IMG/VR virus record: IMGVR_UViG_2671180460_000002
Strand: one strand, 5' to 3'
Length of the DNA stretch: 36,986 bases
From: a virus
Taxonomy: Duplodnaviria; Heunggongvirae; Uroviricota; Caudoviricetes
Below are positions 1,060-36,986 of this stretch, in pieces. The notes below the pieces were generated by a model. That model saw only the letters and a program-made list of their open reading frames with translations, did no database searches and was not told the DNA's origin. A program made the position numbers and the translations under genes. The number at the start of each line of letters is the position of its first letter. Positions within the stretch are counted from its first letter, which is position 1.

Positions 1060-1192
1060 TTTTCCTTTCCTATTTAACCAATTGATTTTCAATCACAAAA
1101 CTATATAAAGACCAAAAGCAAAAAGAAAATACAAAGAAAAGGCTATTTTTGCTTTACATGGGTTACATATGGATCAATACTTATATCCGAAG

Positions 1193-1241: not shown

Positions 1242-1478
1242 ATGATGGTTAGAAATGAAGTAATGAACCTGGACTGGCACCGCGAGTACATTGTCGCAGC
1301 TGTGCACACCAAAGGTTTTACATTGCGTGAACTGTCTGTTCGCGCTGGTCTAAAAAAAGACTCTTTAAAAAATGCATTGTATCGCTCATGCCCTAAATAT
1401 GAACGCATCATAGCCGATGCTATTGGTGTGGAACCTGCGGAGATCTGGCCAAGCCGGTATGCCAGTAAGGCGGCATAA
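1242..1478 (+). CDS. ner: Ner-like DNA-binding regulator
   Basis: Translation contains DWHREYIVAAV...IWPSRY, matching Mu Ner (DWHRADVIAG...IWPSRY). Stop overlaps the transposase start. Confidence 0.85.
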   Translation: MMVRNEVMNLDWHREYIVAAVHTKGFTLRELSVRAGLKKDSLKNALYRSCPKYERIIADAIGVEPAEIWPSRYASKAA

Positions 1479-3520
1479 TGTTTTATTCAGCCAATGAACT
1501 GGCCGGTCTTACTGGTTTGCCCGGTACAGTTCAGGGGGTGCGCTGGACGCTCAATCGGATCACAGAGACGCACCCGGAATGGAAGCGCAAGCGTGAAGGC
1601 ACCAAAGCATTCGAGTATCACATCGACTGCCTGCCCGCTGAAGCGCAGAAGGTTTTACGTAAGCGCCTGACTCATCAGGTCCTGGAAGATGCACAACTGC
1701 CCGCCGTGGTTGAGCAGAAGGCAGTTAAAAACGTCGCCGTTCGTGATGAACTGGAAGTGATGGTCAAATGCCCGGAACTGGCATTACGCGAAGTTCAGGC
1801 ACTGACCGACAAGCAAAAGGCCATCGCTGATGCGCGGATATTGCTGGCTACCGAAGTGCATAAACTGCGTGAATACGCAAGAATGTCCAGGACGGCAGCG
1901 ATAAAACACATTGTTGATGGTATCCGCCAGGAGGCTTTGCCCGAGCGCGTTATTGTGGCAGGTAATACCGCCAATGCCCGACAGGGTAAGCGAACTGGCG
2001 TCAGTACAGGGAGTTTACAGGAATGGTATTCCGCCTGGCTGATGGCGCGCGGTGATGCCAATCAGTTACTGGCGTTACTGGCTCCCGGTCATCATAAGGG
2101 AACACCGTGGGAGCAGGTTTGGTGGTTGAGCGATTTCTTTATGTTCTATCGCTCATGGAAGCGCCCGACCGTTGAATATGCGTATCGCGAGTTTTCAGCC
2201 TGGTGGCATGAAAAACACGCGAACGATGCGGGAATGCTGGCGGCACTGCCTTCAGTTCACGCAGTAAGACGGGTGTTAAGCAGCGTCCCGGTGATTGTTA
2301 AAGAGCGTTTCCGCTCCACCGGTTCAGCCTGGCGTTCGCTCAATCCCTTTGTGCGACGCGACTGGAGCACATTACCGGTTAATGCGGTATGGGTCGGGGA
2401 TGGTCACTGTATGAAAATGACCGCGTTTAACCCCCTGACCGGCAATATTTTCCGGCCAGAAGTGACGCTGGTTATGGATGCGGGGCAGCGCTTTGTTGTG
2501 GGCTGGTCGCTGTCCCTGTCGGAGAACGTGATAGCCGTTGCTGATGCGTTACGTTACGGCATGGCGCAGCACGGGATACCGCTGATTTATTACTCCGATA
2601 ACGGGGGCGGCGAAAAAAACCGGGTACTTGATGCCGATATTACCGGGATTCTGCCCCGTCTGGGTGTGGAACATCACACGGGGATACCAGGTAACCCACA
2701 GGGGCGCGGGGTGATTGAAAGGCTTAACAAGGAAATTCCCCGGGATGTGGCCCTGAGTTTCCGGACGTACTGCTCAAAGGGAGCAGACAAGGAAACCGTA
2801 ATGATGCAGCAACGGATTATGCAGTCAGCCATTAAGGCCACCCACAAAGGGAAAGAGCTGACAAAACGGCAGGTTAAGTCAAGGGATGAAATCCCCACCT
2901 TTGAGCAACTGATGGCAGCTATAGAGCTGGAGGTCAGACGCTATAACAACCGGCCACACAGCAGCCTTCCCCGCAAAGAGGATGGCGAATATTACAGTCC
3001 GGCAGCGTATCGCCGGAAACTGATAAAAGAACAGAATGTTGAAATTGATTTTCTGTCGCCGGAAGAGCTGCATGAAATGTTCAGACCGGAGGTGACGCGC
3101 AAAACATTTCGCGGGGAAATTCAGTTATTCAACAATATTTATTACTCGTATGAGCTGGCAGCAGAGCACGGAAATGAAGTCAGGGTTTGTTACGACATTC
3201 ACGACGCAAACAGCGTGATTGTCAGGCGGATGGACGGTTCTTATATCTGCGATGCCATCTGGAACGGTAATAAGGTTGATGCGTTCCCGAAAGCTGTTAT
3301 CGAACAGCAGCAGGAGAAACGCGCCAGAGGCCGCATTGCACGGGCCACGCAGAAAATCGAAGAGGCTAAACGCGAGCTTACCCCGGCTATTACGCAGAAG
3401 CCTGACTTTAATTTTGGATGTGGTCTGGAGCGTAAGGAGGAAAAGAAAAAAGAAGAACTTTATTTCTTTGCATCCGAGCGTGACCGCAATTTAAAGAAAG
3501 ACGGCACAAACAACCGTTAA
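1478..3520 (+). CDS. Mu-type DDE transposase (MuA-like)
   Basis: 680 aa, immediately after ner. N-terminal winged-helix-like region followed by a large catalytic core, size and position as for MuA (663 aa). Confidence 0.9.
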   Translation: MFYSANELAGLTGLPGTVQGVRWTLNRITETHPEWKRKREGTKAFEYHIDCLPAEAQKVLRKRLTHQVLEDAQLPAVVEQKAVKNVAVRDELEVMVKCPELALREVQALTDKQKAIADARILLATEVHKLREYARMSRTAAIKHIVDGIRQEALPERVIVAGNTANARQGKRTGVSTGSLQEWYSAWLMARGDANQLLALLAPGHHKGTPWEQVWWLSDFFMFYRSWKRPTVEYAYREFSAWWHEKHANDAGMLAALPSVHAVRRVLSSVPVIVKERFRSTGSAWRSLNPFVRRDWSTLPVNAVWVGDGHCMKMTAFNPLTGNIFRPEVTLVMDAGQRFVVGWSLSLSENVIAVADALRYGMAQHGIPLIYYSDNGGGEKNRVLDADITGILPRLGVEHHTGIPGNPQGRGVIERLNKEIPRDVALSFRTYCSKGADKETVMMQQRIMQSAIKATHKGKELTKRQVKSRDEIPTFEQLMAAIELEVRRYNNRPHSSLPRKEDGEYYSPAAYRRKLIKEQNVEIDFLSPEELHEMFRPEVTRKTFRGEIQLFNNIYYSYELAAEHGNEVRVCYDIHDANSVIVRRMDGSYICDAIWNGNKVDAFPKAVIEQQQEKRARGRIARATQKIEEAKRELTPAITQKPDFNFGCGLERKEEKKKEELYFFASERDRNLKKDGTNNR

Positions 3521-3537: not shown

Positions 3538-4431
3538 ATGAGTTTAATTACGCAATTAAATGACGTAATGGCCCGTCGCGGCTATACACAAACCCACGTT
3601 GCCCGTGCTATTGGTCGTAGCAGCGCCGTTATCAACCAGTATTTGCAGGGTAAATATCAGGGCGATATCACTGATATCGAAGAGCGAATTTCTGCCTTTG
3701 TCAGCCGTGAACGGGAAAAAGAAAACAACCGGCGTGTAAAAGCAAGTTTTGTGACTACAGGTATGGCCGCCAAAGGGTTGGAGGCACTGGCCTATGCTCA
3801 TCTGGAGTGTGAAATTAGCGTGTTGTATGGCGCGGCAGGTCTTGGCAAAACAATGATTTTGCGCGAATACGCCGCCAGAAACCGGGACGCAATACTGATT
3901 GAGGCTGACCCGGGCTATACAGCCAGGACACTGCTGGAGGAGTTGTGCCGCCAGTTGGGGGTAAAGGTTCGCGGCAATATTCACGAACTGATTAATGCCT
4001 GTGTACACGAATTGCGTGACTCCGGTCGCCTGCTGATGGTGGATGAAGCCGAACTGCTCCCCTATCGTGCGCTGGAAGTTCTGCGTCGTCTGCATGACAA
4101 GGCGGGCGTCGGTGTTGCCCTGGCTGGTATGCCGCGCCTGTTGATTAATCTTAAAGGCAATCGTGGGGAGTTCGCGCAGCTATACAGTCGGGTGGCTCTT
4201 TCGCTGGACCTCGGCGATACGCTGGCGCAGAAGGATTTCATCCAGATAGCCGCTGAACTGATGCCGGAAGCAGCAGCGCCTGAAATCTGTGAAGCACTTT
4301 ACACACGCTCACGGGGTAATGCCCGACGCCTGTTTAAACTTGTGCGTGGGGTCTACCGGATTTGTGATATCAGCGATGCCCCGGTCAGCGTGCAGGCTAT
4401 TGATGATTTCGCGGAAATGTTAATTCACTGA
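3538..4431 (+). CDS. MuB-like AAA+ ATPase, transposition target DNA activator
   Basis: 297 aa with Walker A GAAGLGKT and N-terminal HTH-like segment; directly downstream of the transposase as in Mu. Confidence 0.85.
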   Translation: MSLITQLNDVMARRGYTQTHVARAIGRSSAVINQYLQGKYQGDITDIEERISAFVSREREKENNRRVKASFVTTGMAAKGLEALAYAHLECEISVLYGAAGLGKTMILREYAARNRDAILIEADPGYTARTLLEELCRQLGVKVRGNIHELINACVHELRDSGRLLMVDEAELLPYRALEVLRRLHDKAGVGVALAGMPRLLINLKGNRGEFAQLYSRVALSLDLGDTLAQKDFIQIAAELMPEAAAPEICEALYTRSRGNARRLFKLVRGVYRICDISDAPVSVQAIDDFAEMLIH

Positions 4432-10767: not shown

Positions 10768-10946
10768 AAAACCGTAAGGCAAAAATTCTGTTAGCTCGCA
10801 GAAACGGTGTTGGGATCTGGCGATGGTTGAGGATTAGTAACAGACGAGTGAGGTTGACGGGGTGTTGCGGGGTGATGGGGCACAGCTGTTGCAAAAAGCC
10901 CAGCGCGGCGCAAAACCGCTGGAAGAATCACACTAACGCAAAGTAA
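10764..10946 (+). CDS. possible small Cys-rich protein
   Basis: 60-aa ORF, ATG overlapping the previous stop; weak. Confidence 0.2.
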   Translation: MKNRKAKILLARRNGVGIWRWLRISNRRVRLTGCCGVMGHSCCKKPSAAQNRWKNHTNAK

Positions 10947-10966
10947 TTAAATAATAACCAATAACA

Positions 10967-11010
10967 GACCAAAACATATGTTTTGGTCTGCCAAAAGTAG
11001 TGTTTTGGTC
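10967..11010. promoter_or_regulatory. twin palindromes GACCAAAACATATGTTTTGGTC and GCCAAAAGTAGTGTTTTGGTC
   Basis: Perfect 22-bp palindrome at 10967-10988 immediately followed by an imperfect copy, just upstream of the ATG at 11014. Confidence 0.5.
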
Positions 11011-11013
11011 ATT

Positions 11014-11292
11014 ATGAAGATTGAACAAATCGGAATGGCAGCCTTCCGGCAACAGGCTGAAAGCGGTGGTGTGGATGAGTTCGTCGTGCAGCGGTTCGGT
11101 GGTGTGTATCACCTCTTCGCTGTGAATCGCCGCGCCGGGGTGTCCTATTTTCTACAGGAACGCCGTGGCGATTACAAGACGTGGCTGTCTCTTGACCGTG
11201 CCGCCGCGTTCCTGTCGGGGATTGGTGTTTCTCGTTTTACCGTGCGTTTTGAGGATAACAAACATGCTGAAAAAGATGATCGGAGCCATTAA
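11014..11292 (+). CDS. hypothetical protein
   Basis: ATG at 11014 after the twin palindromes; the track start at 10978 lies inside the palindrome. 3' end overlaps the GemA-like gene in another frame. Confidence 0.35.
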   Translation: MKIEQIGMAAFRQQAESGGVDEFVVQRFGGVYHLFAVNRRAGVSYFLQERRGDYKTWLSLDRAAAFLSGIGVSRFTVRFEDNKHAEKDDRSH

Positions 11293-23627: not shown

Positions 23628-24059
23628 ATGTCTTACGCCACACCGGAACAGTTCATCAGGGCATTCAGTGAACGCGAGGCACGCACACTGACGGATGAAG
23701 ACATGACGGGATTCATCGACGAAGAAAAGCTGGCCTCCGCGCTTGCACGTGCCAGTGCCCAGATTGATGGCTATCTGGTGGGGCGTTACCGGACCCCGTG
23801 GCCTGACAGCCCGGGGATTCTGGTGGGTTACTGCTGCGATATCGCCCGTTACCACCTGGCGACCGATTACCGTATCTGCTCAGAAGAAATTCAGATGCGC
23901 TACCGGGACGCCATCCGCTTTCTGGAGAAAGTCGCGGCAGGACAAATCAACCTCGGGCGGGATACGTCCGGCAGCGTGATCCAGTCATCGTCACAGGTGC
24001 GTATCCGCTCTGGCTCCCGTCAGTTCGGGCGTGAGTCCACGCGGGGAGGTGCATTCTGA
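23628..24059 (+). CDS. Mu gp36-like protein (DUF1320-type)
   Basis: 143 aa after the major head, AGGAG RBS; synteny with Mu gp36. Confidence 0.5.
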   Translation: MSYATPEQFIRAFSEREARTLTDEDMTGFIDEEKLASALARASAQIDGYLVGRYRTPWPDSPGILVGYCCDIARYHLATDYRICSEEIQMRYRDAIRFLEKVAAGQINLGRDTSGSVIQSSSQVRIRSGSRQFGRESTRGGAF

Positions 24060-24112: not shown

Positions 24113-24694
24113 ATGGTGCAGGATGTCCGCACCTATGCCGGTGAACTGGATGAAGACCCGGGCCGGATTGTTCGCAGCCTTCCGGCAGCCTGGGTGACGT
24201 TCGGCGGCATCGTGAAAACCGAACGCTATTCCACGTCACGCCGGAAATACATTACCACCGGACGCTTTGTGGTTGTGGTGGGTGATTACAACACCCGCAG
24301 CGAACAGAGCGCCAGACAGGGAGGCACCGTCCGGGATGAAGTCGGGACAAACCAGATGGTTGAATCCGTCCGTCGCCTGCTGACCGGTCAGGATTTGGGG
24401 CTGGAGATTGATTATTTCGAACCCGGGCGGGTCAGGATGCTGTTTAACACCGGCGTGGCAGAGCGGGCAATGTCCGTGTTTGCCTGTGAGTTCGATACCC
24501 GCTGGGTGGAGCACGCGCTGGAGAACGGCAAATGGCCGGAGCGTGGCGCAGAAGCGGACCGCCTCTTCAACCGCTACCACGGCAGGCTGTCAGACCCGGA
24601 TCCGGATTTACTGCGAATTGGTACGCAATACGGCGCAGATATCTGTGGTCTGGATGAATTAAGAGAGCAACAGCATGAACAAAATGAAGGTTAA
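24113..24694 (+). CDS. Mu gp37-like protein (DUF1834-type); true start probably upstream at a non-AUG codon
   Basis: First ATG is at 24113, but the frame is open upstream and reads a protein-like ITEIERALVERLRCGLGH from ATT 24059 or CTG 24056, preceded by GGGGAGG at 24043-24049. Confidence 0.5.
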   Translation: MVQDVRTYAGELDEDPGRIVRSLPAAWVTFGGIVKTERYSTSRRKYITTGRFVVVVGDYNTRSEQSARQGGTVRDEVGTNQMVESVRRLLTGQDLGLEIDYFEPGRVRMLFNTGVAERAMSVFACEFDTRWVEHALENGKWPERGAEADRLFNRYHGRLSDPDPDLLRIGTQYGADICGLDELREQQHEQNEG

Positions 24695-24917
24695 GGCGGC
24701 TCCCGGGGTGAAGTTCCCGATGGAGGATAACGCCCGGAAATACATCACCACGGAAGCGGTGACCGTTGAGAACACCGCTTATTACCGGCGCGCCGTTCAG
24801 GACGGTGACCTGATTCTGGTGAAGGATGAGCCTGAAACCACCGTGACGGCTGAACAGGACGCCGTGCAGGTAAAAGCGAAGGCGAAGAGAGAGAAACAGG
24901 TGGATTCCGATGAGTGA
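24675..24917 (+). CDS. hypothetical small protein (Mu gp38-like position)
   Basis: 80-aa ORF directly upstream of the sheath gene. Confidence 0.4.
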   Translation: MNKMKVKAAPGVKFPMEDNARKYITTEAVTVENTAYYRRAVQDGDLILVKDEPETTVTAEQDAVQVKAKAKREKQVDSDE

Positions 24918-26331
24918 AATTCAGTTTGACACCATTTCGGGCGGCATCCGTAAGCCCGGTGTGCATTTTGAGTTCAATACCCGGCTGGCCGTTAACACGC
25001 TGCCGGGTAATGAACAGCGTGTTCTGGTGATTGGCCCGATGCTGTCAGGCGGCACCGCCACGCCCCTGAATGCCGTTTCCGTGTATTCCGAAGACGAAGC
25101 GGATGTGTATTTCGGGGCCGGTTCGCTGGCAGCTGCAATGGCGCGCGCGGCCATTAATGCCAACAGCTATCTGCAACTGGATGTTATCGGTATTGCAGAC
25201 AGTGGCGCAGGAAAGGCAGCAACCGGCGCGGTTACCGTCAGTGGTACAGCAATCAGCAGCGGCACACTGTCGGTATGGGTTGCCGGTGAGCAGGTCACGG
25301 TGGATGTGGAAACTGGTGATGAACCGTCGAAAATCATTCCGGCACTGGTGGAAGCAATGGCGCAGACGCCCTCGCTTCTGGTGACGGGGGAATACAAATC
25401 AGAAACCTCTCAGCTGACGGTGACCACCCGGACCAAAGGTGCCTGGGGGAATGATATCACCCTGTCAGCGTCCACCACGGCAGGTGGTCTGACCGTGAGC
25501 GCCACGCCGATGGCGAACGGCGAAATGGACCCGGATATTCAGCCCGCACTGGATGCGGTCTTTGCCGCCGGTCACAACATTCTGATTTGTCCGTTCAGTA
25601 CCACGCCAGCCCTTGCCGCCCTGAAGCAGCATCTGGAGAAAACCGGGAACGCGATGGAACAGCGCGGCGCGATTGGCTGTGCAGGCTGGACGGGCAGTCT
25701 CGGAAACGGGATCACCCTGGCAGCCGGTGTGAACAGTGGGCGCGTGTCCGTCCCCTGGTATCGCGGCTCCGTGAAGCTGCCAGCGGTGCTGGCTGCCATC
25801 TACGGCGCTGTGATGGCGGGCGAGGAAGACCCGGCGCGTCCGCTGAACTCGCTGGCGCTGTCCGGGCTGGATGTGGTCGCCATGTCACAGCGTGAAAGCC
25901 GTAACGAGCAGGAAAACGCCCTGCATAACGGCCTCACTCCGGTTGAGGTTGGTCCGGGTAACACGGTGCAGATTGTGCGTGCGGTCAGTACGTACACGGT
26001 TAACGCACAGGGCGTGACTGACGTCTCGTTACTGGATATCACGTCCATCAGAACGCTGGACTACACCCGCAAGGCGTGCCGCGAACGCATCAGCCTTCGC
26101 TTCCCGCGCGAAAAACTCAGCACCCGCACTATCGCAAAAGTGGAAAGCGAACTGTATGACGTGCTGATCAAGCTGGAGGAAGCGGAAATTCTGGAGAACG
26201 TGGAAGCGAACAAGGCAAAGCTGCGCGTTCAGCGAAACGGGAAAGATGCAAACCGTCTCGACTGCGTGGTTCCGGCGGATGTGGTTAACGGCCTGCATGT
26301 GTTTGCCGGTCGCATCGACATGATTTTGTAA
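24910..26331 (+). CDS. tail sheath protein (Mu L-like)
   Basis: 473 aa, AGGTGG RBS, followed by the tube gene; typical myovirus sheath size and position. Confidence 0.9.
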   Translation: MSEIQFDTISGGIRKPGVHFEFNTRLAVNTLPGNEQRVLVIGPMLSGGTATPLNAVSVYSEDEADVYFGAGSLAAAMARAAINANSYLQLDVIGIADSGAGKAATGAVTVSGTAISSGTLSVWVAGEQVTVDVETGDEPSKIIPALVEAMAQTPSLLVTGEYKSETSQLTVTTRTKGAWGNDITLSASTTAGGLTVSATPMANGEMDPDIQPALDAVFAAGHNILICPFSTTPALAALKQHLEKTGNAMEQRGAIGCAGWTGSLGNGITLAAGVNSGRVSVPWYRGSVKLPAVLAAIYGAVMAGEEDPARPLNSLALSGLDVVAMSQRESRNEQENALHNGLTPVEVGPGNTVQIVRAVSTYTVNAQGVTDVSLLDITSIRTLDYTRKACRERISLRFPREKLSTRTIAKVESELYDVLIKLEEAEILENVEANKAKLRVQRNGKDANRLDCVVPADVVNGLHVFAGRIDMIL

Positions 26332-27271: not shown

Positions 27272-29534
27272 TTTCAAAGTTGGCATGACCCTGACTGCGA
27301 AGGACGAAGCCTCGCAGGTTCTGGAAAAGGGACAAAAACAGGTTATCAAAGCCACCGAAGGTGTAACAAAGGCAACACGGAAGGCAGGCGCAGAGCAGAC
27401 GCGTACCGGGCAGGAAAGCGTTAACTGCACGAAAAAGGCGGCAAAAGAGATACAGCGTGCCGCCCGTGCCCGGGAAACGCTCGGTATTCGTGCAGAGCGT
27501 GAGATCCGGCGTGAAATTTATCAGACGGTTGCCAGTTATAACCGTCTGGCCCGCGCCGGTTTTGAATCTGCGCAGGAGCAGGAGCGCGCCATGCAGGCCA
27601 CCCGGGAAAAAGCCCGGGCACTCAAGCGCGAACTGGATGGCGTTACTCAGGCTCAGATGAAGATGGCGAAAACGCCTGTTATCCCGGAGCCAGGGCGTTT
27701 TGCGCGTGCGGCTGCATTTGGCGGGAATGCCGTGACAATAGGCGGTGGTATTGCAGCAGGTGCTGCCATTATGGCGCAGCCGGTCAAAAAGCAGATGAGC
27801 TACGAACGCCAGCTGGCAATGATGGCCAATACCGCCTTCAGTGATGGCGGGCTGGAGGGGCGCAGGGCTGGTCTTGAGCAGATGAAAAGCAGCATCCGTA
27901 ACGCGGTGACCTATGGCGGCGGTACGAAAGAAGACGCAGCCGAAACGCTGGATGCCCTGCTGAAAGATGGCGGTATTTCATTTGAAACAGCCAGTAAGTG
28001 GCTGCCTGAACTGATGAAATACGCCACGGCTTCAGGCGCATCAGCGACAGACCTGGCTAATGTGATGCTTAAGGGTAAAAAGACCTTTGGATTCAGGGAT
28101 GAAGATATTTCCACCGTTCTGAATATGGCAATTGCAGCGGGCAAAGAAGGCAGCTTTGAACTGAGCGACATGGCCCGCTGGTTATCTTCGCAACTGGGGT
28201 CAGCGTCAGCTGCGGGGATGAGAGGCAAGGATGATTTTGTCAAGATTCTGGCGCTGAATGAAGCTGCCGCCATCACGGCGGGAAGCAGTGATGAGGCCGG
28301 AAATAACGTGTTTAACCTGCTGGCTAAACTGACCAGCCACGATATTGAAACAGCGGCAAAGCGCATTGATTACAACGGTAAAGGAATTGATTTTTCCGGC
28401 ACGCTGGTTCAGGCGCGCGAACATGGGCTTGATCCGATAGATGCGCTGTCCAGCCTGATAGACAAAATCGTTGCCAGCGATAAACGCTTTCAGGAGTTGC
28501 AAAAGAAACTGGCCTCCGCCCGGGATAAAGGTGAGCAGACGGCTGTTTACGATTCGATGGCAAAACTCCTTGAAGGCTTTGGTGTCGGGAAACTGGTTGC
28601 AGACCAACAGGCGTTAAAAGCGTTGCTGGCTTACCGTAACAACCCTGAATACCGGAAAAAGGTTGAAGACGCGATTAATCAGCAGCGCACCCTGCCGGAA
28701 GGCCAGCGCGCGGGTGATGTGGATTTTAACTTCATATCCGGCCTCAATGACTTTAAAACCGAACAGGCTAAAAACACGCTTGAATTTTCACAAATGGACA
28801 GCGTGAAAAAGCTGGCGGATGCATCCGGTACTGTGGCTGATGCCATAAGCTGGGCGGGTGAAAAGTTTCCGGGACTGACCACGGCAGTGGTGGGTGCCAC
28901 GACCGCCATTGAAGCGATGACCGCAGCGGCCCTGACATGGGCCGGGATCAAAATCCTGACCGGGGGTAAACCCGATGGCAAGGCTGGCGAGGTTGTCGGT
29001 GATGTCATTGAAAACACGGTCAAAAAAGGCAAAGGATTTAAATTCCCCGGCATTGCCGGTAGCCTGCTTTCTTTCGGTGGCACCGTTACGGCACTGGCCA
29101 CCGCAACCAGCCCGGAAGAAGACGCCGCCGTCGAAGGAAGCGAAGAACGCTGGAAGCGCATCCGTGCCCGATACCCCCAGGAAATCATCGACGCTGCCCG
29201 TAAAAAATACCAGCCGTGGTGGCAGTTTGGGGAAGGCTACTCCACCGAAAACGAAGAGTGGTTGAGGCGCTGGGAGGAAGACAGGAAAAAAGCCGCAGCT
29301 GATGCCCTGCCATCACCGGCACAGGTCAACAAAGCCGCCGGAAACACAACGCCTGAATCAGCATCAAAGCAAGCCGGACGCATCACCCAGCCGGAATACC
29401 TCACGCACTGGGTACCACCTGCCAGCCCCATTAATTTCACCACACAACTGGTGCTCGATGGTCAGGTTGTGGCGGAAGCAGTGAACAAATACAACCTTCA
29501 GGACGGTAACAGAGGCACGGGAGGAACTTACTGA
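27261..29534 (+). CDS. tail tape measure protein
   Basis: 757 aa, Ala/Gly-rich with coiled-coil and hydrophobic segments; follows the chaperone pair. Confidence 0.85.
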   Translation: MAGNFKVGMTLTAKDEASQVLEKGQKQVIKATEGVTKATRKAGAEQTRTGQESVNCTKKAAKEIQRAARARETLGIRAEREIRREIYQTVASYNRLARAGFESAQEQERAMQATREKARALKRELDGVTQAQMKMAKTPVIPEPGRFARAAAFGGNAVTIGGGIAAGAAIMAQPVKKQMSYERQLAMMANTAFSDGGLEGRRAGLEQMKSSIRNAVTYGGGTKEDAAETLDALLKDGGISFETASKWLPELMKYATASGASATDLANVMLKGKKTFGFRDEDISTVLNMAIAAGKEGSFELSDMARWLSSQLGSASAAGMRGKDDFVKILALNEAAAITAGSSDEAGNNVFNLLAKLTSHDIETAAKRIDYNGKGIDFSGTLVQAREHGLDPIDALSSLIDKIVASDKRFQELQKKLASARDKGEQTAVYDSMAKLLEGFGVGKLVADQQALKALLAYRNNPEYRKKVEDAINQQRTLPEGQRAGDVDFNFISGLNDFKTEQAKNTLEFSQMDSVKKLADASGTVADAISWAGEKFPGLTTAVVGATTAIEAMTAAALTWAGIKILTGGKPDGKAGEVVGDVIENTVKKGKGFKFPGIAGSLLSFGGTVTALATATSPEEDAAVEGSEERWKRIRARYPQEIIDAARKKYQPWWQFGEGYSTENEEWLRRWEEDRKKAAADALPSPAQVNKAAGNTTPESASKQAGRITQPEYLTHWVPPASPINFTTQLVLDGQVVAEAVNKYNLQDGNRGTGGTY

Positions 29535-30883
29535 TGGGCTGGGCTGAAAACCTGCAAAACGCTTCCTTTCGTGGCGTGCAGTTTGATGTACTGAACACGG
29601 ATGAACAAATCAGCCGCGACCATACGGTCTATGAATACCCGTTTGTTGACGGGGCGGATTTGCACGACCTCGGACGCAAGGCGCGACCGTTCCGCATGAC
29701 GGCGTTCCTGTGGGGGGAGTTTTACGAATATAAACTTGAAAAGCTGATCGCCGCCCTGGATAAAGGCGGCGATGGTGAGCTGATTCACCCGGTTTACGGC
29801 TCCGTACCGTCGGTGATTGTGACCGGCTACAGCATTCGCCATGACGCAGAAAGCCCGGACAGCTGCACCATCGACATGAGTTTTCTGGAGAACCGCACCG
29901 GCAGCGCGTTGTTCAGCACCCCGTTACCGGAGCTGTTTGCACAGCAGTTATTTGAAGAACTGGATAAGTTACTGGAACAGTTAAGCGAATTATTTGACGC
30001 TGTTACGGCCCCTTTAAAGACCATTAACAGCGTGATTAAAAAAATCCAGACGGTGCGTGCCACGCTGGTGAATACCCTGCTGACGTTCAAAAGCGATTTT
30101 CTCTCATCCATCGACAATATGATGTCACTGGCCAGCGAACCCGGAAAGTTCATCGGCGGGCTGGCAGAGGTGCTGGAAATCCACACGTCAGATGTCGGGC
30201 ACGCGGTGCCGGTGCTGGAGCGTACTGATTCCGCCACCACGACCGGACTGACCGGAGAAGACAGCGTCGCCAGTTCTGCGACCGTGATGACCTGCTGGAA
30301 TGAGGTGATGGCAGATATGGATGAGCTGGTCGCGCTGCCGGTCGCACTGGTCAGCGGTGATAAAACGCCGTCTGTGGCACTTCCGCCGGATGCGTCCGTG
30401 GAAGACGTGCAGGACGTGAAAGCGGCTTATGCGGTTCTGGCAGCCTCAGAGCTGGCCAGCGTGGCGACGGCGATACTGTCAGATGAGGCCCAGTCAGAGC
30501 AGCTTATACCGGCGGATATCGGGCGACTGGTCGGGGATGTGCGCACCCGCTTACAGGCCGCCATTACGCTGTTCCGTGAACGCTATGAAGGCGAACGCGA
30601 ACGGATAACCGAAACCGCATCACCACTGGGGCTGATGTACCCGGAAATCATTCAGAGCATGAAGAACGTGGCGGCATCCGTGCAGGATGTCGGCCTGCTG
30701 GTTCTGTCACGCCGCCCACCGCTGACGCAGAAACAGGTGCAGGCGGACAGCTGTCTGCTGTTGCTGGCGTGGCAGTGGTACGGCGACTACAGCCGTGCGG
30801 CAGAGCTGCAACGTCTGAACCCGCAGCTGCGTGACCCGAACAACATAACCGCCGGGATGGTGATTAATGCCTATGCAAAATAA
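29534..30883 (+). CDS. Mu gp43/N-like protein (DNA circularisation protein family)
   Basis: N-terminus MGWAENLQNASFRGVQFDV matches the DNA_circ_N-type start; GGAGG RBS; follows tape measure. Confidence 0.75.
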   Translation: MGWAENLQNASFRGVQFDVLNTDEQISRDHTVYEYPFVDGADLHDLGRKARPFRMTAFLWGEFYEYKLEKLIAALDKGGDGELIHPVYGSVPSVIVTGYSIRHDAESPDSCTIDMSFLENRTGSALFSTPLPELFAQQLFEELDKLLEQLSELFDAVTAPLKTINSVIKKIQTVRATLVNTLLTFKSDFLSSIDNMMSLASEPGKFIGGLAEVLEIHTSDVGHAVPVLERTDSATTTGLTGEDSVASSATVMTCWNEVMADMDELVALPVALVSGDKTPSVALPPDASVEDVQDVKAAYAVLAASELASVATAILSDEAQSEQLIPADIGRLVGDVRTRLQAAITLFRERYEGERERITETASPLGLMYPEIIQSMKNVAASVQDVGLLVLSRRPPLTQKQVQADSCLLLLAWQWYGDYSRAAELQRLNPQLRDPNNITAGMVINAYAK

Positions 30884-32078
30884 CGACGACAAAATCAGCC
30901 TGGTCATTGCCGGAAGGTCGCATTCTGACTGGAGCAGTTATCGTATTGACAGTGATTTCCTGAAAGCCGCCGACGGCTGGCAGCTTCAGCTGGGACTGCC
31001 TGAAAAGGTGTTCCCGGCGGATATCGTCCGGGGTGCGCCGGTCCGTTTGCAGGTGGGAGACGAGACGGTGCTCAGTGGGCGCGTGGACAGCGTGCGCCGC
31101 AGTGTATCCCGTCAGAGCTGCACGCTGACCCTGTCCGGGCGTGATGATGCCGCCATTCTGGTGGACTGTGCCGCGCCGGTATTCAGCGCCAACCAGCTGA
31201 CGCTGGACGAGGTCATCGACAGGATAGTCAGACCGCTGGGGATACAGCGCATCCGTATTCAGGCGTCCGGTGTGTCACGTAATGACAAGGTCGTTATAGA
31301 GCCGGGGATGCGTGCGTGGGATGCACTGGCCAAAGCTGCCGCCGGTCGCGGCTTATGGCCGTGGTTTGAGCCTGACGGGACGCTGGTTGTGGGTGGTCCT
31401 GACTACACCACCACGCCGGTGGACACGCTGCTTCTGACGCTGGACGGTACCGGGAACAACGTGATGGAGCTGGACGATACCCGGTCCATTAACGGCTGCT
31501 TCTCCGAACTGACGGTTCTGGCCCAGAGCCACGCCCGCCGCGCAGACAGCAAGAAACAGGTAGCCGTGGTGCCACTGGACATCTGGAACGAGGACGGCAG
31601 CGTGCGCACATTATCCGGGCAGGACAGCGGTAATACGGATAATGGCCAGACAGGCATTCACAACATGAAAGCCGTGGCCACCGACCCCACCGTGGATTAT
31701 TACCGCCCGCAGATAATCACCCAGGGCGACACCAGCAACATGGAGCAGGTGAACTGGCGCGCAAAAAAAATGATGAGTGATGCCCGTCTGTCGGGGCTGG
31801 ATATCGTCGCACTGGTTGCAGGCCATCGCACGGCGGACGGTGTCCTGTGGCAGCCCGGCCAGCGTGTGCGGATTGTCAGCGAACTCCACGGCATCGACGC
31901 CATCTTTTTCCTGATGGGGCGTGAGTTCAGCAGAGGCCGGAACGGGCAGACAACCCGGCTCCGCTTTAAGGAGGATGGCGTGTGGATACCTGATGCCTTC
32001 CCGCGCGAGAAGAAACGCCATCATCGCAGGGGCAAAAAGAAAAAAGAGGTCGCCATTGTTAAGGTCTGGGAGAAATGA
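30867..32078 (+). CDS. baseplate hub protein (Mu gp44/P-like)
   Basis: 403 aa in Mu synteny after gp43-like; overlaps the upstream gene end. Confidence 0.75.
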   Translation: MPMQNNDDKISLVIAGRSHSDWSSYRIDSDFLKAADGWQLQLGLPEKVFPADIVRGAPVRLQVGDETVLSGRVDSVRRSVSRQSCTLTLSGRDDAAILVDCAAPVFSANQLTLDEVIDRIVRPLGIQRIRIQASGVSRNDKVVIEPGMRAWDALAKAAAGRGLWPWFEPDGTLVVGGPDYTTTPVDTLLLTLDGTGNNVMELDDTRSINGCFSELTVLAQSHARRADSKKQVAVVPLDIWNEDGSVRTLSGQDSGNTDNGQTGIHNMKAVATDPTVDYYRPQIITQGDTSNMEQVNWRAKKMMSDARLSGLDIVALVAGHRTADGVLWQPGQRVRIVSELHGIDAIFFLMGREFSRGRNGQTTRLRFKEDGVWIPDAFPREKKRHHRRGKKKKEVAIVKVWEK

Positions 32079-32728
32079 TGTGGGACAAGGTTAATCAGCG
32101 CGTACAGCAGGCGCTGTCCGCCGTTCGCCAGGCATTCAGGGTGGTGACCGGTACGGTGGACAGTTCGACCAAAGTACAGCTTCTCCAGCTAAACGGGCTG
32201 GCAGGCGAACAGCTGGACGGTGCGGAGTATTTTCAGCATTACGGCCTCACCACATCCCCGCCGCCCGGCTCAATGGGTATTGCCGTTCCGCTGAACGGTA
32301 ATACCTCCCATACGGTTGTGGTCGCCACAGAGCACGGCGCATATCGCCTGACGGAACTGAAACCCGGGGAAGTGGCCCTGTATACCGACGAAGGCGCGAA
32401 AATCGTACTGAAGCGCGGGCGGATTGTTGAAACCGAATGTGACGTTTACCGGGTGAAATGCAAACGCTATGAGGTTGAGGCAGAGGAGAACGCCGCATTC
32501 ACGACACCGTTACTGACAGCCAGCGACAGGCTGATGGTGGAAGGCAAAATCACCGGCAACGGTGGCATGGCCATCAGCGGAGGTAAGAAATATGCCGCCA
32601 CCTTTGAAGGCAACATCAACCATGTGGGTGGTGTGATTACCTCCGTTGACGTCACCATTAATGGCGTTAAAATCGGAACGCACAAACACCCGACCCCACA
32701 CGGCATGTCTGACACGCCGGTTAATTAA
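32075..32728 (+). CDS. baseplate central spike protein (Mu gp45-like, gpV-type)
   Basis: 217 aa; C-terminal GTHKHPTPHG resembles the His-containing apex motif of spike proteins. Confidence 0.7.
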   Translation: MMWDKVNQRVQQALSAVRQAFRVVTGTVDSSTKVQLLQLNGLAGEQLDGAEYFQHYGLTTSPPPGSMGIAVPLNGNTSHTVVVATEHGAYRLTELKPGEVALYTDEGAKIVLKRGRIVETECDVYRVKCKRYEVEAEENAAFTTPLLTASDRLMVEGKITGNGGMAISGGKKYAATFEGNINHVGGVITSVDVTINGVKIGTHKHPTPHGMSDTPVN

Positions 32729-32741
32729 GTGCTGAACACCC
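32729..32741 (+). promoter_or_regulatory. late-promoter dyad motif copy 3 (GTGCTGAACACCC)
   Basis: Third copy of the motif, beginning 1 nt after the gp45-like stop and 53 nt before the gp46-like ATG. Confidence 0.45.
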
Positions 32742-32781
32742 TCACCTGATTCTGACCTGTCCATGCTGCCAGACTGGCGGC

Positions 32782-33132
32782 ATGGACCAGACGATTTCAC
32801 CTGCAACCGGCGACTACGAACGCCGCCGGATTTATACACTTCATAACGCGGTTTATCTGCGACTGGCGACACCGCTTGGCAGTTACTGGGCGGATGCGTC
32901 GCTGGGGTCACGCCTGCACGAACTGAAGCGGGAAAAAGACGTTTCCCGTGTTCACCGGCTGGCGGCGCAGTATGCCAGCCAGGCACTTCAGCCCCTGCTT
33001 GATGACGGGCGGGCGACAGCAATTACCGTTGACACGAAAGCGGGCCAGCGCGGCTGGCTGTTGCTGTTAATCACCGTCACGGATAACGCGGGCACACCGC
33101 AGACGTTTGAACACCCTGTGAGGATTATGTAA
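32782..33132 (+). CDS. baseplate protein (Mu gp46-like)
   Basis: 116 aa directly upstream of the baseplate-J-like gene, as Mu gp46. Confidence 0.65.
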   Translation: MDQTISPATGDYERRRIYTLHNAVYLRLATPLGSYWADASLGSRLHELKREKDVSRVHRLAAQYASQALQPLLDDGRATAITVDTKAGQRGWLLLLITVTDNAGTPQTFEHPVRIM

Positions 33133-34211
33133 TGCCGTTTTCTGTTCCGGGCGTTGCTGAAAACACAGAACGCCAGCTACGTGATATCGCTAACGCCCTG
33201 CCGGGAGAAACCATCGACACCGGCGCTGACAGCGATTACCGCATTCGTGCAAATGCCGTATCCGGCGTGGCGGACGGACTTTATATGCATCAGGGATGGA
33301 TCCTCCGTCAGGTGTTTCCTGACACGGCAGCCCCTGAATATCTGGAGCTGCACTGTCGCACGCGCAATGTTTTTCGTAAAAAAGCAACGGCCTCATCCGG
33401 TCCGGTGGTGATTACCGGCACACCCGGTAAGACGCTGCCAGCCGGTGCGGAAATTCGTGGTGAAGGTGTCAGCGTGGCCACCACAGCAGACTGCACCATC
33501 GGTGATAAAGGCAGCGCAGAGGTGACGGTAAAAAGCACCGCCACGGGTGCACAGACGAATGCATCCACGACGCAGACGGCAACGCTGGTCAGCCCACCTG
33601 AAGGCATCAACAGCACGGTGACGATTAAATCCCTGACCGGAGGAACGGACAGGGAAAGCGACGCCGACCTGCTGGCGCGTTATCTGGATATTCTGCGCAG
33701 GCCGCCCGCTGGCGGTAATAAATATGATTACAAACGCTGGGCGCTGGAAGTGGATGGCGTTACGTCTGCGTATGTGGAGCCGTTGCGTCGTGGACTGGGG
33801 ACGGTTGATGTGGCCATTACGTCAGCCAATGACCTCCCTTCGCAGGAACTGATTAATGCCGTGCTGGCACATATTGAGGAAGTCCGCCCGGTCACAGCAA
33901 AGGACACGATGGTACTAGCCCCGACGAAAAAAGCCGTTGATTTCGTTGTCCGGGTAAAAACCAGCGGCCTGACCGTTGAGCAGATAAAACCGCAGATAAC
34001 TGACGTTATCACGGATTTTATGAACCGGCTGGAGCCGGGGCAGGAATTAATAATTTCACAACTGGAAACCCAGATTTCATTAATTTCCGGTGTCAGTGAC
34101 CGGCGAATCATTACGCCAGCAGACAACGTAAAAGCCATTATTAACGCGTCAACGTGGGAATGGCTGCGCCCGGGAAATATTGATATTCAGTCTTTTCCAC
34201 GTGAGGGGTGA
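33132..34211 (+). CDS. baseplate J-like protein (Mu gp47-like)
   Basis: 359 aa; start overlaps the upstream stop; size and position of Baseplate_J family proteins. Confidence 0.8.
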   Translation: MPFSVPGVAENTERQLRDIANALPGETIDTGADSDYRIRANAVSGVADGLYMHQGWILRQVFPDTAAPEYLELHCRTRNVFRKKATASSGPVVITGTPGKTLPAGAEIRGEGVSVATTADCTIGDKGSAEVTVKSTATGAQTNASTTQTATLVSPPEGINSTVTIKSLTGGTDRESDADLLARYLDILRRPPAGGNKYDYKRWALEVDGVTSAYVEPLRRGLGTVDVAITSANDLPSQELINAVLAHIEEVRPVTAKDTMVLAPTKKAVDFVVRVKTSGLTVEQIKPQITDVITDFMNRLEPGQELIISQLETQISLISGVSDRRIITPADNVKAIINASTWEWLRPGNIDIQSFPREG

Positions 34212-34215
34212 TTTT

Positions 34216-34788
34216 ATGAATATGGTCGATTTATTTCGCGCCATGCTGCCACCTGTCAGTTATGACCTGAACGGGAAATATATTTCCGCAGAACTGACAG
34301 CCGAGGCTGACGTCATGGAGGCCGTGAAGGCCTCAGCGGCGCGCGTTCTGGCACAAATCACCCCGTTGCAGGCATCGATGACGCTGTCCGACTGGGAGCG
34401 CGTGTACGGTGTTGTCCCCCGTGAAGGGGCAATACAACAGGAGCGGCGGCAGAACATTCTGGTAAAAATGGCAGCCACGGGCGGGCTGTCAATCCCTTAC
34501 TTTAAGAGCCTTGCCGCCAGTCTGGGCTATACCATCACCATTACGGAGCCGCGACCGTTCCGGGTGGGGATAAACCGCTGCGGCGACCGTCTGCTGATAC
34601 CGGAAATCCGCTGGGTGTGGCAGGTCAACGTTATCGGGACAAAAACACCTGTCTACCGGTTCAGAACGGGCGCATCGGCAACCGGCGAACCGCTGACGGC
34701 CTTTGGTGAATCCATTTTAGAAAACACGTTTAAAGACTTTAAACCGGCTTTTACGGACTGTTATTTCACGTATGAGGTGGAGGAATAA
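34216..34788 (+). CDS. tail protein (Mu gp48-like, DUF2313-type)
   Basis: ATG at 34216 after GAGGGG; about 190 aa between baseplate J and the tail fibre. Confidence 0.65.
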   Translation: MNMVDLFRAMLPPVSYDLNGKYISAELTAEADVMEAVKASAARVLAQITPLQASMTLSDWERVYGVVPREGAIQQERRQNILVKMAATGGLSIPYFKSLAASLGYTITITEPRPFRVGINRCGDRLLIPEIRWVWQVNVIGTKTPVYRFRTGASATGEPLTAFGESILENTFKDFKPAFTDCYFTYEVEE

Positions 34789-35591
34789 TGCAGAATTTAA
34801 TGCCCCCGGTGAATACGCCGGATAAGTTATTTCATGATGGTGACCCGACTCAGGGAATTGAGGGAACCATCGTTACTGCTGAATTTATGAATAATCATCA
34901 GGCAGCAACGCGTGATTTGCAGCAGGAGGTGATTAACGTCCTTAAAGAAGCTGGCGTCACCCCTGACCCGGAAAAACAAAACCAGCTGGTTGAGGCGCTG
35001 ACCTCGTTTATTGGCCAGAAAGTCCCGGATGCATCACTGACGCAAAAAGGTGTAGTGCAGCTTAACAGTGCTGTTAACAGTGAATCAGAAACAGAAGCAG
35101 CTACGCCAAAAGCGGTCAAGATTACGATGGATAACGCAAACGCCAGACTGGCAAAAGACCGTAACGGCGCAGACATCCCGAATAAACAATTGTTTCTGGA
35201 TAACATCGGCGGTGCGCCGAAAACGCGCAAAATTAACAATATGCCCCTGACGTCGGATATCACCATCAGCAACATCGGCGGCAACGCCGGAACGGCAACC
35301 CGCCTTCAGACGGCCCGCAGGATTAACAATGTGCTGTTTGATGGCACCAGTGATATCACCATCAGCACCACCGATTCTGGTGCAGTACGTAATTTCAGAT
35401 ACACCAGCGAAGTGTTTCACAATCCCGGTGGTAACGAAATTTCCTGGGTATTCCGCGCGCCTTCAGGGTGTATTTTGTCAGGTATTAACGTTCAGGAAAC
35501 TGGCAAAAGCTCTGCGGATAACATCGGTGGTGTGTATTACAAACAAACTCAGATTTATATCAATGGCGGATGGCGCACGGTATCCGGCTAA
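34788..35591 (+). CDS. tail fibre protein (Mu S-like position)
   Basis: Contains KGVVQLNSAVNSESETEAATPKAVK, the conserved tail-fibre motif seen in lambda Stf and P2 H; strong GGAGG RBS; followed by an assembly chaperone. Confidence 0.75.
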   Translation: MQNLMPPVNTPDKLFHDGDPTQGIEGTIVTAEFMNNHQAATRDLQQEVINVLKEAGVTPDPEKQNQLVEALTSFIGQKVPDASLTQKGVVQLNSAVNSESETEAATPKAVKITMDNANARLAKDRNGADIPNKQLFLDNIGGAPKTRKINNMPLTSDITISNIGGNAGTATRLQTARRINNVLFDGTSDITISTTDSGAVRNFRYTSEVFHNPGGNEISWVFRAPSGCILSGINVQETGKSSADNIGGVYYKQTQIYINGGWRTVSG

Positions 35592-35605
35592 TTAAGGAGA
35601 AAATA

Positions 35606-36130
35606 ATGGAACTCAGAAACGTCACACGTTATTACCCTGAAAATATGCCTTATGGTGAAAATATTCAGTATTTCCGCAGTAAAGACGGACATGATTTTTA
35701 TGAATCACAGGATAAATTCACGAAGAAATACAAATTGTGTATTCACCCTGAAACCGGCGTGATTTATTCAATGGCGGAAGACGTTTCCCGTCTTTATCCT
35801 GTTGGTTTTACCATTGTGGAAGTGGACGAATTGCCTGAAGGGTTTGGTATTGAAGCCAGCTGGTATTACCGGGACGGCGAAGTACTGCCGGTGCCCGTTG
35901 ATTACCCACGATTATCAGAAAAACAACGCCAGCGTCTGCTGAATGAAGCAAAGGACATCACTTCTGACTGGAAAACCGAACTGGAGCTGGGCACCCTCAG
36001 CGATGATGACAAAGCCCGTCTTACGCAGTGGATGGAATATATCAAAGCGGTAAAGGCGCTGGATTTAAGTCAGGTCATTGATGAATCTTCCTTTTATTTA
36101 ATTCAGTGGCCGGAAAAACCTGACGTGTAA
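35606..36130 (+). CDS. tail fibre assembly protein (Tfa/U-like)
   Basis: ATG at 35606 after AAGGAG; about 175 aa directly downstream of the fibre gene. Confidence 0.75.
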   Translation: MELRNVTRYYPENMPYGENIQYFRSKDGHDFYESQDKFTKKYKLCIHPETGVIYSMAEDVSRLYPVGFTIVEVDELPEGFGIEASWYYRDGEVLPVPVDYPRLSEKQRQRLLNEAKDITSDWKTELELGTLSDDDKARLTQWMEYIKAVKALDLSQVIDESSFYLIQWPEKPDV

Positions 36131-36136
36131 AACAAT

Positions 36137-36166
36137 AACGGTCGCTGTCTGGCGACCGTTTTCAGT
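36137..36166 (+). terminator. putative intrinsic terminator after the tfa gene
   Basis: 9-bp stem AACGGTCGC/GCGACCGTT with a 6-nt loop, followed by a T-rich TTCAGTT. Confidence 0.5.
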
Positions 36167-36177
36167 TCAGAGGCTTT

Positions 36178-36986
36178 ATGTCTGTATTAATTTCAGGTGC
36201 ACTTGTTAATGGCACTGGCGTTCCGATGGCGGAATGCAAAATTTATTTAGATGCACTGGTTAATACCAGTGAAGTGGTTATTGAATCATTTGCGGTTATT
36301 GAAACCGATGCGGCGGGACAGTATGCCTTTGAAGCGCAGACAGGAAAATATGCCGTTCATATAAAACAAAAGAACGGCCCGAAATGTTGCGTGGGGAATA
36401 TTGCTGTTTATGACGATTCAAAGCCCGGCACGCTGAACGACTTTCTGACCGCCCCCGATGAAGGCGACCTCAAACCCGACGTGGTAAAACGCTTTGAGGA
36501 AATGGTGGCACAGGCGCAGCAGAGCGCAGAAGCCGCCGCTGGCAGCAAACAACAGGCAGGACAACACGCCACTGATGCACAGCAGATTAAGGCCGACTGT
36601 CAGGCGCTGGCGAAAGACGTACAGCAGAAAGCCGACGCGGTTGCGGAGGGTAAACAACAGGCCGAAAATCTGGTCTCACAGGTTGAGAATGCCGCCGAGG
36701 AGGTAAAAAAGGACGCTGAAGCTGCTAAACAGGCCGCATCTGATGCAGAGCATGTCAGGGAGGATATTGACACCGCGTTATCTGCGACACTGAAAACGGC
36801 GAATCGTTTATCAGAGCTGGCTGATGAAGGTGAAGAGGCTCAGCAGGAATCCCGTGATAATCTTGGACTGAAAAGCGCAGCCACGATGACGCCACAGAGC
36901 GACATTCGCGACCGGACTGAAGGCCGTCTGGCGACACCTGGCGCATTTGGTTTTGGGCATATTTTTCTGCCCGCAGAGCGTATCCG
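36178..36986 (+). CDS. side tail fibre protein, lambda Stf-like N-terminal domain (3' partial, runs off window)
   Basis: MSVLISGALVNGTGVPMAECKIYL...GKYAVHIKQ...IAVYDDSKPGTLNDFL...PDVVKRFEEMV parallels the lambda Stf N-terminus. No stop in window, so absent from the supplied track. Confidence 0.8.
   Translation, partial: MSVLISGALVNGTGVPMAECKIYLDALVNTSEVVIESFAVIETDAAGQYAFEAQTGKYAVHIKQKNGPKCCVGNIAVYDDSKPGTLNDFLTAPDEGDLKPDVVKRFEEMVAQAQQSAEAAAGSKQQAGQHATDAQQIKADCQALAKDVQQKADAVAEGKQQAENLVSQVENAAEEVKKDAEAAKQAASDAEHVREDIDTALSATLKTANRLSELADEGEEAQQESRDNLGLKSAATMTPQSDIRDRTEGRLATPGAFGFGHIFLPAERI

Follow-up and report, generated by a model that had tools for sequence, protein, structure and literature searches.

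Two successive fibre cassettes and no invertible segment at the right end of a Mu-like prophage of Escherichia coli

The viral DNA of 36,986 nucleotides (nt) analysed here (IMG/VR record IMGVR_UViG_2671180460_000002, referred to below as the window) is almost the whole of a Mu-like transposable prophage of Escherichia coli. Its tail genes are followed by genes for two fibres of different type: a short fibre with the N-terminus of Mu S, encoded together with a chaperone of the Tfa/U type, and a fibre with the N-terminal collar of lambda Stf, encoded in near-identical elements together with a DUF4376 protein. We consider it probable that both fibres are functional components of the virion and that they occupy separate sites. 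A system for the inversion of fibre genes was found neither in the window nor in its continuation. Judged from gene order, the window shares its two-fibre arrangement with phage phiP27 and many prophages, in which the cassette recurs.

Organization of the two cassettes

The window ends inside the second fibre gene. The DNA beyond position 36986 was taken from the elements L004, L005 and L006, which are 99.86-99.99% identical to the window and do not represent the window's own genome. The features of the two cassettes are (coordinates of the window, unless L004 is given; aa, amino acids):

34788-35591, plus strand: fibre 1, a Mu S-type baseplate fibre of 267 aa (PF03406, E 1.8e-20; PHROG 1833 'tail fiber', E 9e-102)
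35606-36130, plus strand: Tfa/U-type fibre assembly chaperone of 174 aa (PF02413, E 7e-20; PHROG 136, E 4e-55)
36137-36160: GC-rich hairpin between the two fibre cassettes (AACGGTCGC-TGTCTG-GCGACCGTT, stem of 9-10 bp)
36178-36986, plus strand: 5' 57% of the second fibre gene, encoding the collar (residues 1 to ~95), a linker and a coiled-coil shaft rich in A, Q and E (PF08400)
L004 11391-12815: complete second fibre of 474 aa, no internal stops
L004 12823-13389: DUF4376 protein of 188 aa (PF14301, E 7.6e-15), starting 8 nt after the stop of the fibre gene and thus outside the window
L004 13512: right end of the element, after a terminal region of 123 bp that follows the DUF4376 gene and ends ...GCGAAGTTACA

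Fibre 1 and its Tfa-type chaperone

The first-pass annotation of the window, made from the sequence without database searches, had proposed a Mu-type fibre of 267 aa followed on the plus strand by a Tfa chaperone, and this was borne out by the domain and PHROG matches listed above and by the identity of the two proteins to Mu S and U'. Fibre 1 consists of an Sc-like N-terminus (residues 4-141), two internal repeats of ~30 aa and a distal tip of ~70 aa. The N-terminus is 41-42% identical to residues 12-171 of Mu S (the constant Sc part), and the similarity ends at the annotated boundary of the G segment of Mu. The tip matches the C-terminus of a 'short tail fiber' (PDB 9cuy, E 4.6e-14) and, weakly, residues 453-502 of Mu S. 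Fibre 1 combines an N-terminus of the Sc type with a short and unrelated distal part. The ratio of nonsynonymous to synonymous substitution rates (dN/dS) of the gene was 0.09-0.19. According to the cryo-electron microscopy structure of the Mu virion, gp49 (S) is anchored through its N-terminus to a fibre-docking loop of the wedge protein gp48, and each baseplate carries six trimers (PMC11915804).

Over its full length the chaperone shares 29% identity with Mu U' (24-29% across U and U'). Its start is likely the ATG at 35606 rather than that of a longer open reading frame (ORF) from 35570, because the RefSeq annotation of relatives starts there. An exact-protein look-up of fibre 1 returned 19 contigs; a search among contigs of one genome per species, a sampling that misses this prophage, gave only an irrelevant match in Bryobacterales.

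The two internal repeats of fibre 1 are also visible in the DNA, as two direct repeats (window 35226-35373) that lie 90-96 nt apart and encode the two ~30-aa units (R-K/R-INN...SDITIS) that separate the Sc-like part from the tip. Just upstream of these repeats, at the position of the gix site of Mu, the homology to Mu S ends.

The Stf-like fibre and the DUF4376 protein

The third ORF starts with an ATG at 36178, is preceded by a GAGG motif and stays open for 269 codons up to the end of the window. That this is a separate gene with a lambda Stf-like N-terminus, as suggested before, was confirmed by PF08400, which spans residues 1-134 with all 134 positions of the profile (E 4.9e-51), and by a phmmer match to residues 1-92 of Ur-lambda Stf (PDB 9e7m, E 1.3e-17). 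The end of the window inside this gene is technical, a breakpoint of short-read assembly, because contigs routinely end there (6 of the 9 contigs among the loci listed end inside the second fibre gene) and because many of its database homologues are annotated as 'partial'. For instance, the NCBI assembly L008 matches the final 12.2 kb of the window with 100% identity and likewise breaks inside the third ORF.

In L004, L005 and L006 an identical right junction (...GAAGTTACA) is followed by three unrelated host flanks. Since the three loci share this junction and then diverge, as is typical of the end of a Mu-type transposon, both additional genes lie inside the transposon. The possibility that the Stf-like pair belongs to a neighbouring element was rejected on the same ground. 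Of the two genes that the first-pass annotation proposed to look for beyond position 36986, the rest of stf was indeed present in these elements and a second tfa was not, the chaperone type there being DUF4376. The terminal region of 123 bp contains an inverted repeat of 20 nt (L004 13424-13488, 95% complementary, spacer of 25 nt), which could be a terminator or part of a transposase-binding end.

No Pfam domain besides PF08400 was detected in the full-length fibre of 474 aa. The only matches of its C-terminal 205 aa are to virulent myophage fibres, with ~30% identity, and the protein has neither the T4 gp37-like distal domain nor a Tfa (Caudo_TAP) gene downstream. With regard to receptor specificity, no informative domain or close characterised homologue was found for either fibre tip. 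DUF4376 proteins are experimentally supported fibre chaperones in the Alteromonas phages V22 and A5 (PMC7289586, PMC10579305). The proteins concerned (V22 gp27 and A5 gp9, ~190-240 aa) are encoded directly downstream of the fibre, as here; the similarity is distant, at the level of the family, and it is in those phages that chaperone activity was demonstrated. PHROG 11571 unites a Tfa-like N-terminal part with a DUF4376 C-terminal part, which supports the notion that DUF4376 does the job of the Caudo_TAP C-terminal domain. By analogy, the DUF4376 protein of the window element would be a fibre chaperone.

Several fragments of PF08400 fibres carry the name 'shikimate transporter' in NCBI (P0046, P0068, P0112, P0116 and P0119), which looks like a propagated misannotation.

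Absence of an invertible G segment

The absence of an inverted copy of the fibre or chaperone genes, noted before for the window, held in the continuation as well. A tblastn search of the reconstructed element of 38.3 kb with Gin, Com, Mom, S' and U' of Mu recovered only the plus-strand fibre and Tfa genes, and Gin had no match at E <= 1. In the window and its continuation the best candidate for a gix, hix, cix or pix site matched at 17 of 26 positions, the same as in shuffled sequence, and no long inverted repeat was found across the fibre region. The element thus has the Sc N-terminus and the U-type chaperone of the Mu system, and lacks the inverted S'v-U' pair, the serine invertase and the crossover sites. 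A classical G segment directly downstream, which the first-pass annotation had itself held against its reading, was accordingly not there: the continuation has no inverted pair, gix-like site or gin-type invertase. We also considered whether fibre 1 retains a remnant of a gix site at its Sc boundary (~35187-35215) and rejected this, as the homologous codons are too diverged to exceed the background.

The comparison with Mu can be summarized as follows. Both have MuA, MuB, gp43-gp48, the Sc N-terminus and a chaperone of the U/U' type. Mu has in addition the G segment with inverted S'-U', gix, gin, com and mom, all of which are missing from the window element, and its S protein is much longer than fibre 1 (504 versus 267 aa). 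The place of the inverted half of Mu is taken here by a second fibre with an unrelated anchor. In two other Mu-like prophages, L022 and L024 (6001-8966), com and mom follow the DUF4376 gene, yet gin and an inverted segment are missing.

Selection and mosaicism of the second fibre

We compared the window lineage with its RefSeq relatives C5, STEC313 and M8. In this comparison the collar domain (codons 1-100) had a dN/dS of 0.05-0.07 at a dS of 0.5-0.8, with 88-100% protein conservation, which points to strong purifying selection and matches the values for gp48 (dN/dS 0.05-0.10, conservation 90-98%). In pairs involving STEC313 or M8, identity was 33-66% for residues 101-270 and 27-44% for the tip; between the window and C5 the same two parts stay 91% and 96% identical. 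Total lengths of the second fibre in the lineage are 474, 567 and 684 aa, and dN/dS along the gene was 0.05-0.33. Intact versions of 467-684 aa were present in all complete relatives examined. These data, the intact 474 codons and the dN/dS of the N-terminal domain in particular, contradict the view of the Stf-like ORF as a truncated pseudogene, which had been raised at the outset as a possible refutation. The combination of a conserved anchor and a distal part open to exchange is what one would expect of a fibre that is assembled into particles and is under selection for diversity of receptors, and the pattern fits a fibre that is incorporated in the virion.

The recombination joint can be located from L022, a Mu-like prophage of another sublineage, in which the shaft and the DUF4376 protein are 87% and 84% identical to those of the window element and the collar is only 35% identical. 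A similar shaft with a divergent collar places the joint at the linker between the two, around residue 100. This is the same domain boundary as in Ur-lambda Stf, where residues 92-101 form a flexible linker that connects the collar to the coiled coil (PMC12617516). The collar, shaft and tip of the second fibre have different nearest relatives. Together with the Sc-type N-terminus of fibre 1 on an unrelated tip, this justifies the term 'mosaic' that was used for the adsorption apparatus in the first-pass annotation.

In M8 (L020, a lineage at 83% identity), which has the second fibre of 684 aa, an extra DUF1353 gene (127 aa, 10768-11151) is found after the DUF4376 gene and before the end of the element.

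The hairpin between the cassettes

The hairpin between the Tfa gene and the second fibre gene folds, in a context of 66 nt, with -23.1 kcal/mol (z = -3.45 versus shuffled controls), in agreement with the terminator-like structure described earlier. Its stem is kept in C5, STEC313 and M8, down to 83% DNA identity, and the changes in M8 are confined to the loop. The T-tract (TTTTCAGTT) is weak, for which reason 'terminator-like' is a fair description and 'terminator' is not established. The structure could be a leaky terminator or attenuator, or a stem that stabilises the mRNA. No promoter-like site was detected on the plus strand between the two cassettes, and transcripts of the late tail operon would read through into cassette 2, perhaps with some attenuation at the hairpin. 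In L022 and L024 the Tfa and PF08400 genes overlap by 14 nt, without a hairpin between them.

Recurrence of the four-gene cassette

The order fibre, Caudo_TAP chaperone, PF08400 fibre and DUF4376 protein, after baseplate genes of the gp47/gp48 type, was found in several elements:

phiP27 (converting phage for Shiga toxin (Stx) 2e, NC_003356), genes L54-L57: cassette at the prophage end
Escherichia phage Rac-SA53, tail1-tail4: cassette at the prophage end
Actinobacillus phage vB_Apl-pPE4, gp67-gp70: cassette at the prophage end
L022-L025, Mu-like prophages keeping com-mom: same cassette
L021, Rac-SA53-like prophage: same cassette
L028, Salmonella prophage: same cassette

The cassette has therefore been present in sequenced phages since phiP27 (2002) and is functionally uncharacterised in the literature searched: the open-access literature that we searched holds no description of its incorporation in the virion, its docking or its role in host range for a Mu-like or phiP27-like phage. 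PF08400 fibres are known on short-tailed Stx phages (PMC3368898), and Stf is conserved in siphophages and myophages (PMC12617516).

In phiP27, Rac-SA53 and vB_Apl-pPE4, all three of them phages with contractile tails, the collar is 63-67% and the DUF4376 protein 69-71% identical to that of the window element, whereas among the phage records listed the lambdoid Stf proteins reach at most 50% identity to the window collar. The sequences of fibre 1 and of the distal part of fibre 2 in these three phages differ from those of the window. The backbones are different: phiP27 and Rac-SA53 are temperate phages of the integrase type with toxin cargo, in contrast to the transposable window element. Compared with the window, the tail proteins of phiP27 reach 24-43% identity, and those of Rac-SA53 (of which the sheath was missed by Pfam and recognised by PHROG 205) show no detectable similarity. 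Since similar collars sit on backbones with little or no detectable similarity, the module moves horizontally.

Some variants of the arrangement were observed. In L027 (354-4019) the PF08400 and DUF4376 pair directly follows gpU-gpX-gpD of a P2-like cluster, without a preceding fibre 1 and Tfa, which shows that the module can occur independently of the block of baseplate genes. In L028 (4650-5926, Salmonella enterica) two minus-strand genes lie between the Tfa and PF08400 fibre genes, encoding a hexapeptide-repeat (acetyltransferase-like) protein of 178 aa and an ORF of 239 aa without a match; they look like a moron. In L019 (8613-9668, E. coli JNE21-009, 93.5% identical through the Tfa gene) the Stf-like/DUF4376 pair is replaced by an ORF of 351 aa without a Pfam match. 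The element of this strain has a disrupted gp48 gene and borders directly on a second prophage, of the phiP27-like type, whose adjoining tail genes lie on the opposite strand.

Fold and docking of the collar domain

An AF2 model of residues 1-110 of the second fibre predicted a beta-sandwich and a helix, with a predicted local distance difference test score (pLDDT) of 74 overall and 82-88 in the strands; the model thus has the six-stranded beta-sandwich plus helix of the gpStfN collar. A Foldseek search with the model gave only two significant matches in the PDB. One was the collar of Ur-lambda Stf (9e7m; template modelling (TM) score 0.81/0.94, root mean square deviation 1.0 A, 43% identity), and the other the neck-binding N-terminal domain of gp40 of the Vibrio myophage XM1 (7kjk_A3, E 2.7e-6, TMq 0.77), to which phmmer also aligned residues 2-206 (E 8e-4).

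The two relatives point to different sites. In lambda, 12 collar domains ring the junction between the last hexamer of the tube (gpV) and gpM and give rise to four side fibres, which speed adsorption through OmpC (PMC12617516). The likeness of the second fibre to Ur-lambda Stf (PDB 9e7m; PMC12617516) includes the sequence (45% identity) and fold of the collar, the linker at ~95-100 and a long coiled coil, and a role as accessory adsorption fibre is likely common to both. The differences are the non-contractile tail of lambda, compared to a contractile tail here on which that surface is covered, and the distal domain of the T4 gp37 type with Tfa, compared to a distal part that is not of the gp37 type and a DUF4376 chaperone. 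In XM1, 18 copies of gp40 bind the rings of head-completion and tail-terminator proteins at the neck, and a coiled coil of ~100 residues follows (PMC10457771). The second fibre has the architecture of XM1 gp40 (PDB 7kjk; PMC10457771), with a domain, a linker and a coiled coil; the proteins share the fold of the N-terminal domain of ~100 residues, the trimeric coiled coil of ~100 residues and a receptor-binding C-terminal part. The sequence identity is only 20%, though, the C-terminus of gp40 is tailspike-like, and neck binding was shown in XM1 itself.

As the two anchors are unrelated and the gp48 loop would be occupied by the S-type fibre, the second fibre would have to dock elsewhere than on this loop. 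The neck is a reasonable candidate, because the site used in lambda is covered on a sheathed tail. The putative tail terminator of the window had no match in a PDB sequence search, and there is therefore no sequence link between the neck proteins here and those of XM1. A position of the second fibre at the neck is a tentative suggestion, based on the analogy with XM1, that we hold to be less probable than its presence in the virion as such. Equally speculative is an extended version in which the collar would ring the neck (adaptor or terminator), G inversion would be replaced by a permanent display of two fibres at opposite ends of the tail, and collar plus DUF4376 would form a plug-in accessory fibre for sipho-, podo- and myovirus particles.

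Proposed role of the two fibres and alternatives

We propose that two complete fibre cassettes, which would be expressed together, form the end of the late tail operon in place of one invertible cassette. Fibre 1 would be a shortened fibre of the Mu S type of which the Sc-like N-terminus docks on the wedge loop of gp48, as in Mu, with six trimers. The Stf-like fibre would be an accessory fibre of the lambda Stf type: its collar of ~95 residues would ring a six-fold tubular part of the virion, followed by a short linker, a trimeric coiled-coil shaft and an exchangeable receptor-binding tip that folds with the help of the DUF4376 protein. Because the two N-terminal anchors are unrelated, different sites and display on the same particle are to be expected. 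Breadth in host range would then result from constitutive dual display and from recombinational swapping of distal parts, not from inversion of the Gin type.

Several points weigh against this proposal. The sequence past position 36986 derives from near-identical elements and not from the source genome. The conserved hairpin could lower or block transcription into cassette 2. In a contractile tail, sheath and baseplate bury the surface to which the collar binds in lambda, so that the collar has no established docking site here. A collar identity of 63% across diverged backbones argues against tight co-evolution with one partner and would be compatible with a fibre that is loosely attached or acts in trans. 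The lineage can dispense with the second fibre, as JNE21-009 lacks cassette 2. Finally, the literature searched contains neither proteomics nor images of virions, either of this phage or of another carrier of the cassette.

Some of these points would be accommodated if the Stf-like/DUF4376 pair were cargo, either a reservoir for recombination captured from other prophages or a fibre used in trans by co-resident prophages with tails that accept the collar. The pair is located at the extreme right end of the element, where Mu usually carries its accessory genes (gin, com and mom), it occurs without fibre 1 and Tfa after gpD in the P2-like cluster of L027, and it is missing from the close relative JNE21-009. 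The identity of the collar (63%) and the DUF4376 protein (70%) across backbones with little or no detectable similarity points in the same direction, and the breaks of assemblies inside the gene imply repeated copies in the same genomes. Within the lineage, however, the collar diverges in step with gp48 and under equally strong purifying selection, and exchange is confined to the distal part. Down to 46% identity, every context examined is a structural operon of a contractile tail in which the gene has the same orientation and directly follows the tail genes, no promoter of its own was detected, and in the comparison with L022 it is the collar and not the shaft that differs between backbones. 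We therefore regard cargo as unlikely, though as the strongest of the alternatives.

The presence of a conserved hairpin exactly between the cassettes, and the location of cassette 2 at the position of the inverted S'-U'-gin block of Mu, could also mean that the two fibres are used as alternatives, through regulated read-through of the hairpin or competition during assembly, as a functional analogue of G inversion without recombination. Competition for one site is improbable, however, given the unrelated anchors (Mu Sc-type and PF08400 collar). Moreover, in phiP27 and in L022 and L024 the second gene follows or overlaps the Tfa gene and leaves no room for a hairpin, so that regulation by the hairpin would be specific to the lineage and not part of the design of the module. 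On balance we hold this explanation to be improbable. Less probable still is a second gene that is a decaying remnant, transcribed and non-functional, left after the loss of an invertible segment: its truncation in the window and the many 'partial' homologues suggest decay at first sight, but the truncation is an assembly artefact, complete copies encode 474 aa without stops, and the low dN/dS along the gene and the intact versions in complete relatives make this scenario very hard to believe.

If the proposal of two co-displayed fibres is correct, a common group of E. coli and Salmonella prophages, made up of Mu-like, phiP27-like and related myoviral elements, handles host range in a way unlike Mu, with two fibres, each with its own chaperone, and no DNA inversion. 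Predictions of prophage host range should then consider both fibres, and the joint between collar and shaft near residue 100 would offer a natural swap point for engineering. A concrete structural question is which site a sheathed tail offers to the collar domain. Among the carriers of the cassette are toxin-converting phages (phiP27 with Stx2e and Rac-SA53 with LT-IIa), and the adsorption apparatus thus affects the spread of toxin genes. As fibre genes routinely break short-read assemblies, a 'truncated fibre' at the end of a contig is not to be read as a pseudogene.

Identity and ends of the element

Besides head and contractile-tail genes, the features that identify the prophage and surround the fibre cassettes include:

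412-1092, minus strand: CI-type repressor
1478-3520, plus strand: MuA-like transposase (PF09299 Mu-transpos_C, E 3e-17; PF02316)
3538-4431, plus strand: MuB-like AAA+ protein (PF13401, E 7.5e-22)
23628-24059: Mu-type adaptor (E 7e-12 to Mu gpJ)
24113-24694: putative tail terminator
24910-26331: sheath, 473 aa (E 9e-51 to the Mu sheath, PDB 9khy)
29534-34788: Mu-type baseplate set gp43-gp48
33132-34211, plus strand: baseplate wedge gp47 (Baseplate_J; PF04865, E 3e-68; 34% identity to Mu gp47 over the full length)
34216-34788, plus strand: baseplate wedge gp48 (YmfQ family; PF10076, E 8e-29; 28% identity to Mu gp48)
107-140, plus strand: probable left end of the element (TGTGGGGTAGTGATCAATTCTGGAC..., with a TGT start at 107)

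The element is a transposable Mu-like phage, since it encodes a MuA-like transposase and a MuB-like protein; ends of the type TG...CA and insertions at unrelated sites were found as well. Because the ends of the element are imperfect repeats, its left end was identified by visual inspection and register alignment: TGTGGGGTAGTGATCAATTCTGGAC and the inverted right end of L004-L006 (TGTAACTTCGCGATTTTTTCTGGAC) match at 18 of 30 bases, including TGT and TTCTGGAC, and when up to 3 mismatches were allowed, the inverted sequence of the right end had no match in the window. Positions 1-106 of the window encode a fragment of a TnpB zinc ribbon (PF07282, E 1.5e-11), and the prophage is inserted in a tnpB gene (IS200/IS605-type, with a Cas12f1-like TNB domain). 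The window, which starts in the tnpB repeat and ends in the fibre repeat, looks like a whole short-read contig between two repeats. Within the first 250 nt of the element the motif TCTGGA(C) recurs, and these copies may be transposase-binding sites.

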